Shown one piece after another: positions 386-20,800 of a DNA stretch of 26,005 nucleotides (within the stretch, counting starts at the first letter, position 1; every line of letters starts with the position of its first letter). The stretch lies in the IMG/VR virus record IMGVR_UViG_3300000358_000075. The stretch is one strand, 5' to 3'. Below the pieces are notes generated by a model that was not told the DNA's origin, did not search any database, and was given only the letters and a program-made list of their open reading frames with translations. The translations under genes were made by a program, and so were the position numbers. The stretch comes from a virus (Duplodnaviria; Heunggongvirae; Uroviricota; Caudoviricetes).

Positions 386-1621
386 ATGGCGCTGTCTGAT
401 GCGTGGTTGCGTTCAGTCGTTGGAAAGGAACGTGATAAGGTTTTGGTTAAATCCGATCGTGATGGTCTGTCTGTCAGAGTATCACCGAAAGGTCGCGTAG
501 TGTTCCAATATCGTTATCAATGGGCAGGGAAAGGTGAGCGCCTTGATATCGGAACTTACCCGGCAACTGGATTAAAAGAGGCCAGAGAAGAAGTTATCCG
601 TCTCCGTGGTGAACTCGAGTCAAACCGCAATCCACGATTAGTCAAGCAGGCTGAAAAACGAAAAGCTACTGAAGCCATGACGGTAGAGTCTGTGATCCGT
701 GCCTGGTATGAAGCATATTGTGTAAAAAATAAAAAAGGTTCTGAACAGATACTCCGCTCGTTTGAGCTGCACCTGTTCTCTAAAATCGGGAATATCCCTC
801 ACGATGCAGCTACATTGCATGATTGGTTAGAAGTCCTGGAGCCTCTTAGCACCAAGACTCCAGCAATAGTAGACCGATTGCTAATTAACGCAAAGCAGGC
901 CCATGTCTGGGCGTATAAGAGAAAGCTCATTGAAACTCGCCCACTGTCGGATATCACGGGTAAAGATATGGATATCCGTAAAGGTCAGAAAAAACGGTTT
1001 CTGACACATGATGAAATTAACATCCTTTATGCTGCGATCGATGGTTCTCGAATGGTTCCTAAATACCGAGCCTTCATTAAACTATTGCTGCATTTTGGTT
1101 GCCGTAGTTCAGAGCTAATTACTGCTAGGGTGGATGATTTTGATTTCATAAATAAGGTATGGACTGTACCACCAGAACGACATAAGACTGGGGACATAAC
1201 AGGCGAACCGCTAAAGCGGCCCATTATTGAACCGGTTGAAGAGCTTATAAAATACGCTATCTCTATGAACAACGGTTCCGATATGCTTTTTACTAAGGAA
1301 GGAAGCAGGGAGCCAGTTGGTCGGACATCATTGCAGTCGCTGCCTTACAATTTAATGCAGTTCGCATGGCGACGTTTGGGGTATCAATTTCCTCATTGGT
1401 CTCTTCATGATTTGAGACGAACAGCACGAACAAACTTTTCTGATCTTACTGCTCCTCATATTGCTGAAATAATGCTCGGTCATAAACTGCCAGGTGTATG
1501 GCAAGTTTATGATAAGAGCGATTATCTAGAAGAACAGCGTAAAGCTTACTGGGCATGGTGGGAGAGGGTTGAATCGATCGTTACTTGTACTGACTTAATC
1601 TCCAACGGACAGTTTGCGTAG
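386..1621 (+). CDS. int: Phage integrase, tyrosine site-specific recombinase
   Basis: 411 aa ORF next to the att junction with a good SD; C-terminal catalytic region HDLRRT...GHK...VYDKSDY fits the R-H-R-Y recombinase signature. Confidence 0.9.
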   Translation: MALSDAWLRSVVGKERDKVLVKSDRDGLSVRVSPKGRVVFQYRYQWAGKGERLDIGTYPATGLKEAREEVIRLRGELESNRNPRLVKQAEKRKATEAMTVESVIRAWYEAYCVKNKKGSEQILRSFELHLFSKIGNIPHDAATLHDWLEVLEPLSTKTPAIVDRLLINAKQAHVWAYKRKLIETRPLSDITGKDMDIRKGQKKRFLTHDEINILYAAIDGSRMVPKYRAFIKLLLHFGCRSSELITARVDDFDFINKVWTVPPERHKTGDITGEPLKRPIIEPVEELIKYAISMNNGSDMLFTKEGSREPVGRTSLQSLPYNLMQFAWRRLGYQFPHWSLHDLRRTARTNFSDLTAPHIAEIMLGHKLPGVWQVYDKSDYLEEQRKAYWAWWERVESIVTCTDLISNGQFA

Positions 1622-1779
1622 CCAGAGCGTAATCATATCTGCCAGTCCGCTGCGGATACCTTGTGTACTGGGTTTTTAGCCAGACTACGTTAACCGGTAG
1701 CTTCAGTATTTGGGGGGGCGGCAGGAGTTCGATGGTTTATTGGGTTACTGTGGGACTAAGGATGTAGGGATGCCAATCA

Positions 1780-2913
1780 ATGAATTATGAAAAATATCAT
1801 AGCACAAACAGAAGCAAGGGTTTGCGAACCTTCTGCTACTTAATTTATTATGTGCAGGTGATTTTTAATGTGATGAAGTGTTTTATGACTCGCGGAAACT
1901 TTGATTTTATAAACTCTAACGTGGTTTTCTCAGAAGCCGATAAGTCATTGTGGATTGATCTCATTAACACCGATTGTATTTGGTATGATATGATAATTAA
2001 TCCTCCTGATGATATAAGAACAAATAAGATAATAAAGAACTATCTCAGAATTATGGAAAAATATACGAGGGAAAGCTGTGAAAAGAGATTTATTTATTTC
2101 TTAGGTTCAAGAAAAAAAGTAAGGTTTTCAACCAAGAAACAGCCTAGGTATAACCCATTCACAAAAAATATAGTATTCACTCTGTTGATTGGCAAAGAAG
2201 AGCGAAAGCTTCGGATAAAATATTCCTTTTGCACGTTTACGCAGAATGGGGTAGTGAAGGTAACTCCAAATGTTAGAGTAACTGAGAAGTTTCTCTACAT
2301 TGAATATGAAAATGGCAATTTATGTGTGATGTCAGTTCATGACTTCGTAAACGGACATTATATTGATTTAGGAATTCATACAGAAGTGCATTACGTAGGA
2401 TATACACGTCATCCGCATCGGCGCCCTGTTGATTTTATTCACCGTGGCTTATCAAAGATGCTGTATAGCGTTTCAAATGACGATAATGATTTTTTTGTTT
2501 GTTTTAGTATATTTAATCCAAGGATTATATCTCTGAATAATAAATGTAATGTGGTCTTTAATATTTCAAATTCTCTACTGGATGAAATTGATGTTGATAA
2601 TGAGGGGAGAATTATTGAAAACTGCTTAATACGTTACTTTGATCCTAAGCTTCAAGATGATGACAAGGAAAGTAAAAGGTCAGATTTAAATAAAATGTTT
2701 ATGGACCTGGTGGAAAATAAAAAAATTAAAAAAATATACGTTAATTTTCAATATGAAAGGAATAATGAGTATTTCTGCTTTTACTCTAAAGTTGTTCCGC
2801 CGAAATTTCATCATTTCTTTGTGTTGGATTTTTCTGATGGCAAGATAAATATTGATAGAGACCAGGATATGATGACTCAGATGGCATTGTGTATGGGGTA
2901 TTATAATTATTAA
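1780..2913 (+). CDS. AT-rich orphan protein of unknown function (moron between int and xis); start uncertain, alternative ATGs at 1873 and 1885
   Basis: Long uninterrupted ORF (377 aa), visibly far more AT-rich than flanking phage genes; Asn/Lys/Ile/Phe/Tyr-rich product with no motif I recognise; possible sigma70-like promoter TTGCGA-N17-TTATTA at 1822-1850. Confidence 0.6.
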   Translation: MNYEKYHSTNRSKGLRTFCYLIYYVQVIFNVMKCFMTRGNFDFINSNVVFSEADKSLWIDLINTDCIWYDMIINPPDDIRTNKIIKNYLRIMEKYTRESCEKRFIYFLGSRKKVRFSTKKQPRYNPFTKNIVFTLLIGKEERKLRIKYSFCTFTQNGVVKVTPNVRVTEKFLYIEYENGNLCVMSVHDFVNGHYIDLGIHTEVHYVGYTRHPHRRPVDFIHRGLSKMLYSVSNDDNDFFVCFSIFNPRIISLNNKCNVVFNISNSLLDEIDVDNEGRIIENCLIRYFDPKLQDDDKESKRSDLNKMFMDLVENKKIKKIYVNFQYERNNEYFCFYSKVVPPKFHHFFVLDFSDGKINIDRDQDMMTQMALCMGYYNY

Positions 2914-3122
2914 TATTTCGCTTGATACCAACTCAAAATCTTTTTTGTCGCATCCATTGTGGATTAATATTCAGAGGTAAGGGGTATCTGCGGAATTTAT
3001 ATTTTGCAGGATGAGCATACAATACATGATATAACATCTGTTTTTGGCACAGAGCATATAGTCAGATTATGTTTAGTTCTGTGCCATAGATGGATACTAT
3101 CTCACCTCTTGGCTAACTCTCA

Positions 3123-3317
3123 TTACTCAATAACTCCAGCAAATCTGTATATTTTGCGTGATGCCCATTTATTTGGGCAGGATTTGATATCAGGATCTGG
3201 AAAATCAGGCCTGTATTTCTGGCCAGTTCTCCTGTTTACGCTGTTCCAGCGAAGAACAGTCGATACTGAAACGCCACAGAAGTCGGCGACTTGTTTAGTT
3301 GTCATTAAGTTGTTCAT
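3123..3317 (-). CDS. AlpA/excisionase-family small DNA-binding protein (Xis-like)
   Basis: 64 aa; HTH-like N-terminus (TTKQVADFCGVSVSTVLRW); position next to int; TAATG stop/start overlap with the upstream gene. Confidence 0.6.
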   Translation of the reverse strand: MNNLMTTKQVADFCGVSVSTVLRWNSVNRRTGQKYRPDFPDPDIKSCPNKWASRKIYRFAGVIE

Positions 3318-7736: not shown

Positions 7737-8429
7737 TTAATTGTGTCGCTTAAGGGTCTGTGACTGACTGATTAAGACCTTTCCAAAGACCATAAACCGG
7801 TGTTCGTTTTCGCTGGTAATTCCCCATTCGCGGTAAATCTGATTATCAGAAATTACCAGCAGTTTATCAGGTATCATTTGCAGTCGTTTGACGTAAATTT
7901 TATCATCAAAACCAAATACATATATACCATCCCCATCAAACTGATTGATACTGATATCAACGAAGATGAGATCTCCTGGCTCAATGGTTGGACACATACT
8001 GTCCCCACGAACGTTGATAACTTTAATGTGATTTGCTGGTCGTCCACCAAACATCGATACAGCATTATCAGTTCTGTATTCAATGGCATGAATCACATCA
8101 ATGACATCACCGCCCTGGATAAGGCCATTTCCCGCACTGGCACTGACATCCAGCATTTCAATACGGAATACATCCTTCACCTGCGCAACATCCTCACTAA
8201 CACTGTTTTTACATACAGTATTACTTTTGAAGTCTGAGGTAAAGAGATCAGCAATATCAACACCTAAGCTCCTGGCAATATTACTCAGGGCTTGTTCAGT
8301 GAATTGTTTCTGCTTACCTGTTTCCAGGCGTGAGATATTCGCCGCATCCACTCCTATTGCTTCAGCGAGATCGGCGATTTTCATGTTCTTCGCCTGGCGA
8401 AGTTGTCTGACTCGATTTCCTATGTTCAT
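7737..8429 (-). CDS. CI-like prophage repressor (HTH plus S24 LexA-like autopeptidase domain)
   Basis: 230 aa; N-terminal HTH (…MKIADLAEAIGVDAANISRLETGK…) and C-terminal GDSMCPT…VKRL serine/lysine dyad region; divergent from a Cro-like gene. Confidence 0.9.
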   Translation of the reverse strand: MNIGNRVRQLRQAKNMKIADLAEAIGVDAANISRLETGKQKQFTEQALSNIARSLGVDIADLFTSDFKSNTVCKNSVSEDVAQVKDVFRIEMLDVSASAGNGLIQGGDVIDVIHAIEYRTDNAVSMFGGRPANHIKVINVRGDSMCPTIEPGDLIFVDISINQFDGDGIYVFGFDDKIYVKRLQMIPDKLLVISDNQIYREWGITSENEHRFMVFGKVLISQSQTLKRHN

Positions 8430-8526
8430 GCGTTTATTACATTTCTTTATTGCGCGTTAAGCAAATCAACTTGCGCAAAATATTTGCGTGAAATAATATG
8501 CTCATCACGCAATATGTGGAGGTCAT
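8430..8526. promoter_or_regulatory. Immunity-region divergent promoter/operator between cI-like and cro-like genes
   Basis: 97 bp intergenic with repeated TTGCG(C/T) half-sites in both orientations (TTGCGCG, TTGCGCAAAATATTTGCGTG, CACGCAA); GGAGG SD before cro; no SD before the repressor ATG. Confidence 0.6.
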
Positions 8527-8787
8527 ATGCAATCACCATTACGGAATGTGCGTAAGGCGCACGGATTTACTTTGCAGCATGTTGCTGCGGGCGTTCAGGT
8601 CAATCCAGCGACGCTGAGTCGTATTGAAAGACTGGAACAAATTCCATCTATCGATCTTGCAGAACGTCTGGCCAATTTTTTTAAGGGTGAAATCAGCGAA
8701 ATGCAGATTCTTTATCCGGCACGTTTTCAATCTAGCCAAAACCAGAATGGGTTTAAACCACAGGAACAGGAGGTAAGCCGTGGGTAA
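8527..8787 (+). CDS. Cro-like HTH transcriptional regulator
   Basis: 86 aa; HTH (…FTLQHVAAGVQVNPATLSRIER…); first gene of the rightward operon opposite the repressor. Confidence 0.75.
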   Translation: MQSPLRNVRKAHGFTLQHVAAGVQVNPATLSRIERLEQIPSIDLAERLANFFKGEISEMQILYPARFQSSQNQNGFKPQEQEVSRG

Positions 8788-17116: not shown

Positions 17117-17332
17117 ATGTCAAATAAAATGACTGGTTTAGTAAAATGGTTTAACGCTGATAAAGGTTTTGGCTTTATTTCTCCTGTTGATGGTAGTAAA
17201 GATGTGTTTGTGCATTTTTCTGCGATTCAGAATGATAATTATCGAACCTTATTTGAAGGTCAAAAGGTTACCTTCTCTGTAGAGAGTGGTGCTAAAGGTC
17301 CTGCAGCAGCAAATGTCATAATTACTGATTAA
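17117..17332 (+). CDS. cspB: Cold-shock protein, CspB-like
   Basis: 71 aa [53 protein letters not shown]…, with RNP1/RNP2 motifs; long leader typical of csp genes. Confidence 0.85.
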
Positions 17333-17613
17333 AATTCATAGTTTGTCTGTATACGATAACGAAGAAGGCTGATGCCTGAGTGGAGATACAGACAGAGTGG
17401 TGAATATTGGATCTCTTTAATAAATAGTAAGGAGGTCCAATACATGAAACAATGGCCAGCATATTTGGCAATAACTTAATCAGGAAAAGTATGCTAACCA
17501 TTGTGGTGAAGTGCAGGTTTGCTGCATGAATAGTTTTACAGCAGAAGCTAACTGCTGGCATAGCAAAACAAAGTGCGTAAGTGGATGACTCCCACAAAAA
17601 GTACCACAATATT

Positions 17614-20014: not shown

Positions 20015-20382
20015 ATGTAGATTAACATTAAATCGGATTATTTTTAGCGCTGAATGTGAAATTTAAATAAAAAGGACTCTTCCATGAGTCAAAATCCTTG
20101 AAATCTTAAGGGTAAGATAAAAGGTCATTAGACAGAATGATACGTTTTATTAATAAATAAAGCTATTGTTTCATTCGTGTGTTTTTCTTTACAAAAGTAA
20201 TCCTTGCTATGGTTGGTTAATCATGCGTTAATGGTGTTCTGGTTTGTTACAAAATTATCTGAAGCAGTCATTGTTATAATTTTATTATTTGTACCTCTTG
20301 AGATTTCCTTGTTGGTTTTTCTCTCTGATATTTTTTTCGGACCATTCTGCCCAAGGGCTAACTTCTTCAAAAGGTAATAATG

Positions 20383-20595
20383 ATGTCTAACAAAATGACT
20401 GGTTTAGTGAAATGGTTTAACCCTGAAAAAGGTTTTGGTTTCATCACGCCGAAAGATGGTAGCAAAGATGTGTTTGTCCATTTCTCAGCTATTCAGAGCA
20501 ACGATTTCAAAACGTTAACTGAGAATCAGCAAGTCGAATTTGGTATTGAGAACGGACCTAAAGGCCCCGCGGCTGTTCATGTAGTGGCACTTTGA
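20383..20595 (+). CDS. cspI: Cold-shock protein, CspI-like
   Basis: 70 aa [76 protein letters not shown]. Confidence 0.85.
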
Positions 20596-20800
20596 GGTAG
20601 AAAATATTACAAACCATATTCACTTTAGATGCCCGTGTTGCCATGGTTCTCAGTATAGAACATCATCTTTTGATGTTTCTGACAGGAATCCTTTCGGGGC
20701 AAAATGTATCTTTTGTAAATCAATGATGATTACATTTGATAATATTTCACAATACTTAAATGTTAGCCGTCTGTCGTTAGATTTAAGAAAGTGAAAATGA

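Follow-up and report, generated by a model that had tools for sequence, protein, structure and literature searches.

A single-gene cargo cassette in the int-xis slot of Escherichia coli prophages: a candidate anti-phage nuclease with a divergent GIY-YIG core

The stretch of DNA analysed here, 26,005 nucleotides of a tailed virus of the Caudoviricetes (IMG/VR record IMGVR_UViG_3300000358_000075; called the window throughout), carries a short AT-rich gene between a tyrosine integrase gene (int) and a gene for an AlpA/excisionase-like protein (xis). We refer to this gene and its product of 342 amino acids (aa) as the orphan gene and the orphan protein. From our data we lean towards the view that the orphan protein is an anti-phage nuclease that acts alone, belongs to an undescribed family, has a divergent GIY-YIG core and is encoded as single-gene cargo. 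Two kinds of evidence carry this view. Known defence genes occupy the same slot in sister prophages and adjoin homologues of the orphan gene in other genomes, and a segment in the middle of the predicted structure has the order of elements and many of the conserved residues of GIY-YIG enzymes. It is from these that we infer both a nuclease activity and a role in defence.

Cargo of the int-xis slot and surroundings of homologues

The prophage is lambdoid, of the yfdPQR type, and is integrated beside yjjG. When the window was compared by blastn with eight sister prophages that share its chromosomal site, after yjjG, identity of about 95% was found to extend up to positions 1616-1651 and to resume at 3033-3078, and the DNA between these borders is unrelated. 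In the window the DNA between them is a cassette of about 1.4 kb that contains the orphan gene alone. The initial annotation of the window had taken the gene for horizontally acquired accessory cargo, and a replaceable cassette with sharp borders against the conserved int and xis flanks bears this out. It had also correctly placed the gene between a convergent integrase gene and a Xis/AlpA gene; the orphan gene is co-directional with int and convergent with the second of these, a helix-turn-helix (HTH) gene (coordinates are collected in Table 1).

The open reading frame (ORF) had further been described as strongly AT-rich relative to the prophage, with a product rich in Asn, Lys, Ile, Phe and Tyr, and both descriptions hold. 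The GC content is 0.319 for the ORF at 1780-2913 and 0.320 for the coding sequence at 1885-2913, with 0.324 at third codon positions, against 0.467 in the rest of the window, whose lowest-GC kilobase falls within this ORF. The 17 other ORFs of at least 150 aa have a mean GC content of 0.501 (standard deviation 0.037), which places the ORF about 4.9 standard deviations lower, and the five amino acids named above make up 39.7% of the residues of its product. Low GC is not confined to the prophage copy. In all 44 loci analysed (44 species) the gene has a lower GC content than the surrounding 20 kb, by 12.6 points on average. AT-richness is therefore a property of the family, as expected of a gene that repeatedly moves between hosts.

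Because the cargo of the sister prophages includes a dGTPase, AbiU, Dsr1 and an Mrr-type nuclease, the int-xis slot of this prophage group is a defence-gene hotspot. By position, the four orphan types of sister cargo are equally good candidates for unknown defence genes. The slot resembles the defence hotspots of temperate phages and satellites, for example those of P2 and P4 (PMC13586616), in that it is a fixed position bounded by conserved phage genes at which unrelated defence systems swap. It differs from them in its position, with int on one side and the xis-like gene on the other, in a prophage of lambdoid, yfdPQR type beside yjjG. No description of this slot was found in the literature searched, which does not prove that it is undescribed.

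In E. coli the orphan gene was found in 62 of 5,426 complete genomes, in one copy each and always in the chromosome; 53 of the 62 copies are intact and at least 99% identical. One sequenced phage carries it, PhiR63_1 from ECOR13, with 99.3% identity. Since the copies in Dryocola and Pantoea, which are 82% identical to the orphan gene, share with it an upstream region of about 245 nt including the -35 element of a candidate promoter, the gene moves with its own 5' region. Over a wider range, 185,579 species genomes yielded 47 loci, which belong to Gamma- and Betaproteobacteria, to Campylobacterota and to single genomes of Desulfurivibrio, Verrucomicrobiaceae and Bryobacteraceae.

Homologues of the orphan gene adjoin a variety of defence systems in these other settings. 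In Robbsia the homologue lies between BilABCD and Drt3a/Drt3b, and on a metagenomic contig it adjoins OloA and OloB of Olokun. The Proteus homologue is next to LmuB (Lamassu), in an island close to smpB that also encodes CTD6 and MC2 proteins, while that of Salmonella is carried by an integrative conjugative element and adjoins a restriction-modification (R-M) system, a Dcm/DUF4928/Vsr module. In another genome the neighbours are CcdAB and a PIN toxin. Among 148 ORFs within 3.5 kb of the gene (44 species), strong PADLOC matches were obtained to HamB, AriAB, DitA/B, PDC-S05, TRIP13 and CBASS effectors, AbiEii, QatC and PD-Lambda-3_B. The ORFs 6-10 kb away from the homologues, taken as a control by distance, also include Avs3, Gabija, Druantia and MADS genes, which is not a clean background, so that no formal enrichment of defence genes near the orphan gene can be given. 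Taken together, known defence genes are present in the E. coli slot itself and, around homologues, as parts of Bil, DRT3, Olokun, Lamassu, R-M, Hachiman, PARIS, CBASS, AbiE and Qat, and the defence islands around homologues are large. These surroundings, along with the Dsr1, dGTPase, AbiU and Mrr-like nuclease of the sister prophages, lend computational support to the earlier proposal that the gene is a candidate defence determinant.

An all-against-all comparison of 158 near neighbours (44 species) revealed no recurrent partner family, with the exception of one small Enterobacterales subgroup (2-3 loci) that has two upstream genes in common. In Pantoea eucrina and Enterobacter bugandensis these encode proteins of about 490 and 526 aa just upstream of the homologue and on the same strand (L065:6682-8145 and 8222-9799; L080:6670-8139 and 8205-9779), and in a Providencia genome a homologue of the larger protein (about 526 aa) is encoded upstream (L068:6849-8447). 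The two Pantoea eucrina proteins gave no PADLOC match. These upstream proteins may constitute an unrecognised system beside the gene, or a partner specific to this lineage. No neighbour family recurs beyond this small subgroup; the orphan protein would work alone or with host factors. WYL-domain regulators of the BrxR/CapW-like kind occur near the gene in two unrelated genomes, those of Desulfurivibrio (L064:9036-9944), where the regulator gene is directly upstream and on the same strand, and Robbsia (L003:3969-4829), which hints at regulated expression within defence islands.

Protein family and predicted GIY-YIG-like core

Every source labels the orphan protein as hypothetical. Pfam, NCBIfam and PADLOC models give no match to it, apart from one chance-level match to NNH2 in Pfam, and in PADLOC-DB v2.0.0 (2023) no family is matched at expectation values (E) up to 10. 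The sole match is to PHROG 7779, a family listed as of unknown function. A literature search found no published description of the family, and the protein (WP_225092812) is not listed in the accessible part of the DefensePredictor supplements. These searches agree with the initial annotation, in which an undescribed family had been suspected. At 90% identity the family falls into 47 clusters; at 50% identity, 216 representatives were found among 1.84 billion proteins. Nearly all members have 300-350 residues and a single architecture.

An AlphaFold model of the orphan protein, built with a 40-sequence alignment, has a predicted local distance difference test score (pLDDT) of 90.1 and a predicted template modelling score of 0.88. 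Within this predicted model, residues 146-262 run strand, strand, helix, strand, helix, which is the GIY-YIG order, and form a three-stranded antiparallel sheet flanked by helices. The structural matches of the model to GIY-YIG enzymes are, in descending order of score, T4 endonuclease II (EndoII; 2wsh, 6.6), the defence enzyme PD-T4-3/CMoRE (9u75, 5.7), the N-terminal domain of UvrC (1ycz, 5.2), I-TevI (1ln0, 5.0) and Eco29kI (3mx4, 4.9).

The motifs of this segment point in the same direction as its fold. The motif by which the family is most easily recognised, H-Y170-V-G172-Y-T174-x-N-P-x-x-R180-P-x4-H186, corresponds to the canonical pattern Y-I-G-x-T-x-N-x-x-x-R-x-x-x-H with two extra residues before the His. 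Across the family it takes the form H-Y170-V-G172-Y-T174-x-[ND]-P177-x-x-R180, with a 'YIG' and an Arg about ten residues further on. In an alignment of 97 diverse members Y170 is present in 84, G172 in 88, T174 in 89 and R180 in 83, and 77 of the 97 retain Y170, G172, R180, H186 and E240 together. Among 40 closer homologues Y170, G172, T174, R180, H186, E240 and Q257 are all invariant. The strand of the first motif reads [SP]-[IV]-[HY]152-D-F, where position 152 is His in 76 of the 97 members, as in the orphan protein, and Tyr in 13. We infer that His152 could serve as the base in place of Tyr. The distance from this GIY-like strand to the YIG is 18 residues, against the canonical 10-11. Candidates for the metal-binding Glu are E240 (79 of 97) or E245 (84 of 97), and Q257 (65 of 97) stands where Asn is canonical; the order and the rough spacing of these residues fit.

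At the level of sequence profiles, PF01541 is the Pfam family matched by most members (8 of 97, best E 1.8e-4), and the two of these matches that were located cover the YIG segment, with 14.7 and 15.6 bits. In hhalign comparisons with T4 EndoII, I-TevI and a 10-sequence I-TevI-like profile the same segment was aligned each time, with Y170 on Y17 and R180 on R27; with SegG included, the profile-profile comparison picked out no more than this segment, at low probability. We consider it very probable that the orphan protein is related to GIY-YIG enzymes at the level of the fold. No nuclease motif had been recognised in the initial annotation, but a divergent GIY-YIG-type core is present in the predicted structure and motifs.

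Mode of action, known systems and competing explanations

If the orphan protein is a defence nuclease, the lysogen would express the gene from its own candidate promoter and the protein would cut DNA by a one-metal GIY-YIG mechanism, for which H152 (Tyr in some homologues), Y170, R180, H186, E240 and Q257 are the candidate residues. Cutting of DNA would then restrict incoming phages or other mobile DNA. Self-protection would be intrinsic to the protein, because no methyltransferase, immunity gene or other general partner accompanies the gene. It might be achieved through recognition of a property that marks foreign DNA, modified bases for instance, an option that we slightly favour by analogy with the Type IV enzyme PD-T4-3/CMoRE, or through an auto-inhibition that is lifted by infection, with an abortive-infection outcome. 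The larger fold around the core, that is, the N-terminal beta-rich module and the C-terminal strands, probably gives target recognition or regulation.

The closest parallel is PD-T4-3/CMoRE itself, a single-protein GIY-YIG defence enzyme of Type IV from E. coli that recognises hydroxymethylcytosine (PMC12923530; PDB 9u75) and that, in 248 aa, has its nuclease at the N-terminus and a sensing domain at the C-terminus (PMC12923530). Like it, the orphan gene is a single gene with no partner on E. coli mobile elements, its product combines a GIY-YIG-type core with an extra domain thought to choose the target, and the first motif of the orphan family, [SP]-I-[HY]-D-[FY], echoes the extended 'GIYxY' of CMoRE. 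However, there is no sequence homology between the two. The orphan protein is larger, with a central core, an N-terminal beta module and C-terminal additions, and its S-V-H-D-F has His and Phe for the two tyrosines of CMoRE. This architecture, this motif and the lack of a match to the PADLOC model for PD-T4-3 place the orphan protein outside that family.

The comparison with T4 EndoII (DenA) is closest in the second motif, where its L-V-Y-I-G-K-T-K-N-L-R-K-R aligns with V-H-Y-V-G-Y-T-R-H-P-H-R-R of the orphan protein, and both proteins tolerate an insertion between the motif halves. Past the motif there is no detectable sequence homology (hhalign probability 14%), and EndoII is a phage enzyme of 136 aa that degrades host cytosine DNA in lytic growth, whereas the orphan protein is 2.5 times larger and is found in defence contexts. 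Long insertions between the GIY and YIG halves are also a feature of Eco29kI. Unlike Eco29kI and Hpy188I, the orphan homologues have no cognate methyltransferase in the loci whose neighbours were read; the sole nearby methylase, that of Salmonella, belongs to its own Dcm/DUF4928/Vsr module. A Type II R-M system was accordingly rejected, there being no methylase and no recurrent neighbour across the 44 loci beyond the small subgroup. In contrast to UvrC and Cho, the orphan gene has no repair-gene context.

A number of observations weigh against a nuclease that acts in defence, and we take them here together with the explanations that they favour. The rival that survives best, although we hold it to be unlikely, is that the GIY-YIG likeness is a structural relic and that the protein is a non-nuclease (a sensor, a binder or another enzyme), still possibly in defence, which uses R76, R80, H/Y152, D202, S301 and H310. 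The sequence-level signals for GIY-YIG are all sub-threshold. The PF01541 matches lie below the gathering score of 22.6 bits and the orphan protein itself has none; the hhalign probabilities are 1.5-14% over 13-19 columns for T4 EndoII, I-TevI and the I-TevI-like profile. Membership through the family profile, by a gathering score or by a high profile-profile probability, was thus not obtained. Searches of the PDB sequences with the sequence, the full-length profile and a core-only profile returned chance matches only. A Foldseek search of the model against PDB and BFVD likewise gave no match at E below 0.02, with TM-scores of about 0.1, and the overall fold, as modelled, is unmatched. When the core was modelled in isolation (residues 141-282, 22 sequences) the AlphaFold pLDDT was 62, too poor for a fold search, and because of this value the GIY-YIG-like core is probably not an autonomous domain. 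The core also deviates from the canonical motifs, with S-[IV]-H for G-I-Y and Gln for Asn.

The pattern of conservation is a further point for a relic. In the 97 members the strictest conservation is that of R76, R80, H/Y152, D202, Y251/F252, S301 and H310, most of which do not belong to the canonical catalytic set. Of the 97 members, 88 have S301 and 88 have H310, and in the 20 members without the canonical motif set S301 is kept by 17 and H310 by all 20. Two divergent clades of alignment A2 (P0105, P0112, P0116, P0118, P0123 and P0144; P0140, P0149, P0165, P0169 and P0177) have lost Y170, G172, R180, H186 and E240, yet they strictly keep R76, R80, H/Y152, D202, Y251/F252 and H310, and S301 with one exception. 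Either the nuclease is dead in these clades, or they signal that a different site performs the conserved function. Against a relic, the canonical set is intact in the orphan protein and in the 77 members mentioned above, and its invariance in the 40 closer homologues therefore indicates selection on it.

The same residues admit a further interpretation, to which we give slightly less credence than to the relic. It holds that the orphan protein is a novel single-protein immune module in which a GIY-YIG scaffold is set in a new fold and R76, R80, H/Y152, D202, S301 and H310 form a second catalytic or sensing site. If this were true, some clades would keep that site alone, and a partner-less protein of 340 residues would possess a biochemical activity, or a means of sensing infection, that is new.

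We regard as similarly improbable that the gene is accessory cargo that does not defend the lysogen, but is a lytic nuclease in the service of the phage, comparable to T4 EndoII, a factor that counters defence, or an element-stabilising toxin. Among GIY-YIG structures the phage enzyme T4 EndoII, which degrades host DNA, does match best, toxin-antitoxin genes (CcdAB, PIN) adjoin one homologue, and hotspots also carry anti-defence and addiction genes. However, most homologues lie outside prophages, in chromosomal islands beside defence systems. The orphan gene is oriented away from the early-left operon of the phage and brings its own upstream region, like morons expressed in the lysogen, and it has no conserved antitoxin-like small partner.

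A free-standing homing endonuclease, that is, a selfish GIY-YIG gene that cuts int-xis alleles lacking it and is copied into them during repair without benefiting the lysogen, seems to us quite improbable. Phages commonly carry free-standing homing genes of the GIY-YIG kind, which are often AT-rich, and the orphan gene shares with the genes of I-TevI and the Seg proteins its AT-richness and its sporadic presence in a phage genome. I-TevI is among the closest folds, with the same ten-residue spacing between the two aligned residues, Y17 and R27, as between Y170 and R180. The cassette has sharp borders in conserved flanks and occurs in few E. coli genomes. However, the orphan protein lacks a linker, Pfam detected in it no DNA-binding module of the NUMOD, HTH or zinc-finger kind, and its core is central, unlike the N-terminal core of I-TevI and the Seg proteins. 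Nor is its gene inserted in, or placed next to, a conserved target gene; it occupies a general cargo slot and, elsewhere, defence islands of chromosomes. The architecture of an I-TevI/Seg-type homing endonuclease was rejected on these grounds and on the unrelated loci in 44 species. The slot is also filled by Dsr1, dGTPase and AbiU, which are not homing genes, and this indicates turnover by recombination in the flanks whatever the cargo. Further points against homing are that each genome has one copy and that the homologues, which reside in defence islands of chromosomes and in an integrative conjugative element, have unrelated flanks.

The weakest explanation, a decaying or silenced passenger with no current function, is very improbable. 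In its favour, H-NS is likely to silence a gene with 32% GC in E. coli, and truncated copies exist within the cluster; in E. coli 2015C-3121 (L033) the gene is split by IS1 close to its 5' end, and in MMC-J-0091 (L032; annotated product 339 aa) an IS1 lies directly after its 3' end. Against it, most E. coli copies are intact and nearly identical, as given above, and the full-length frame is intact from E. coli to Campylobacterota at 28-82% identity with many invariant residues, which indicates purifying selection. IS1 may have inserted here because it prefers AT-rich DNA or because the gene is costly to carry.

Should the orphan protein, as a defence nuclease, protect against phage, it would add a compact nuclease family (1 kb, one gene) to those used in bacterial immunity. 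Defence by a single GIY-YIG protein is already known; what is new here is the family and the architecture, which would be the second of a partner-less GIY-YIG defence enzyme after PD-T4-3/CMoRE. Such an enzyme would tell foreign from self DNA without a methylase, and its specificity, for example for modified bases, could be converted into tools, as CMoRE has been proposed as a tool for the detection of 5-hydroxymethylcytosine. Many comparable candidate defence genes are now being reported, so that a further one would be useful rather than startling to specialists. The int-xis slot of this widespread E. coli prophage group can itself be mined for candidates, with at least four further orphan cargo types.

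Gene model, promoter and other features of the window

The initial annotation had described a gene of 377 codons. An ORF of this length is present, but our results place the gene itself, of 342 codons, in its downstream part. PHROG 7779 aligns with residues 36-377 of the long ORF, and the Prokaryotic Genome Annotation Pipeline (PGAP) annotates a product of 342 aa in E. coli MS8345 (WP_225092812.1). All 39 aligned homologues start with M-x-R-G, and in Dryocola, Pantoea, Serratia, Proteus, Hafnia and one Budviciaceae genome an in-frame stop is found 4-13 codons upstream of that ATG. Because of these four observations the coding sequence was set at 1885-2913 and the 377-codon gene model was rejected. 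From the sequence, translation most likely starts at ATG 1885 (MTRGNF...), with 1873 as a possible alternative; a weak Shine-Dalgarno sequence, GAAG, lies 6 nt before ATG 1885. The segment 1780-1884 is most likely an untranslated leader and promoter region.

The promoter that had been proposed for the gene, TTGCGA-N17-TTATTA, therefore lies upstream of the real start and outside the gene. The site is present, but promoter-like sites are no more common here than in shuffled sequence (6 found, 7.3 expected), and the candidate is plausible yet without statistical support. In the 82%-identical cassettes of Dryocola and Pantoea its -35 element is kept and its -10 element partly kept.

Table 1. Features of the window and of the same slot in sister prophages. 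Locus numbers refer to sister loci.
Feature	Position	Strand	Basis
Exchangeable cargo cassette, int-xis slot	1650-3035 (borders approximate)	none	blastn against eight sister prophages
ORF, 377 codons	1780-2913	+	ORF listing of the window
Non-conserved 5' extension of the ORF (35 codons)	1780-1884	+	Absent or out of frame in Dryocola, Pantoea, Serratia, Proteus, Hafnia and Budviciaceae homologues
Sigma-70-like promoter candidate	1822-1851	+	TTGCGA, 17-18 nt, TTATTA/TATTAT; 9/12 consensus positions; 34 nt upstream of ATG 1885
Coding sequence of the orphan protein, 342 aa + stop	1885-2913	+	PHROG 7779 alignment, PGAP, homologue starts, upstream stops in relatives
N-terminal part, residues 1-145: short helices and beta-rich module with near-invariant basic strand K-R-F-I-Y-F-x-x-S-R-x-K-V-R-F (R76, R80)	1885-2319	+	
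GIY-YIG-like nuclease core (predicted), residues 146-262: S-V-H152-D-F, H-Y170-V-G172-Y-T, R180, H186, strand from D202, helix with E240/E245, Q257	2320-2670	+	
C-terminal part, residues 263-342: long helix, then beta strands with near-invariant S301 and H310	2671-2910	+	AlphaFold secondary structure
Tyrosine integrase, conserved left flank of slot	386-1621	+	Pfam Phage_integrase, Arm-DNA-bind_3, Phage_int_M; ~95% identical in sister prophages with other cargo
AlpA/excisionase-like HTH protein (64 aa), conserved right flank of slot	3123-3317	-	Weak HTH_17/MerR-type matches
ORF with TTG start, 130 codons	3004-3396	+	
Sister cargo: dGTPase	same slot		PADLOC 8.7e-105
Sister cargo: AbiU/AIPR protein	same slot		PADLOC 2.6e-111
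Sister cargo: Dsr1	same slot		PGAP name, SIR2_2 domain
Sister cargo: Mrr-type nuclease (Mrr_cat) and HEPN/RES-NTD protein	same slot		Pfam
Sister cargo: orphan, 150 + 160 aa	same slot, L013:1825-2277 + 2319-2801		No Pfam or PADLOC match
Sister cargo: orphan, 271 aa	same slot, L015:1879-2694		No Pfam or PADLOC match
Sister cargo: orphan, 239 aa	same slot, L016:2011-2730		No Pfam or PADLOC match
Sister cargo: orphan, 413 aa	same slot, L017:2909-4150		No Pfam or PADLOC match
isrK Hfq-binding RNA and C4 antisense RNA	9688-9764 and 9789-9876	+	Rfam, 61 and 81 bits
csp-like ORF	16604-16816	-	
cspA thermoregulator leaders	16956-17395 and 20226-20641	+	Rfam RF01766, 157 and 114 bits
Cold-shock ORFs	17117-17332 and 20380-20595	+	

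The HTH protein on the right flank of the slot is named by PGAP either 'DNA-binding protein' or 'helix-turn-helix domain-containing protein', and beyond its gene follow a DUF551 gene and the yfdPQR-type early genes. The TTG ORF crosses the AlpA-like gene in antisense. In phage PhiR63_1 the first part of this ORF is recorded as a hypothetical protein (2851-3216 of that record); the ORF is probably a spurious call.

Two further AT-rich islands of the window, with GC contents of 0.32-0.41, flank the lysis genes and contain cold-shock protein genes, to which the two full cspA thermoregulator 5' leaders and the two cold-shock ORFs of Table 1 belong; the third csp-like ORF is on the opposite strand. 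In the early-right region the Rfam matches to isrK and C4 are adjacent, and we take them to be the small-RNA pair of P1/P7-type immunity and anti-Q control.

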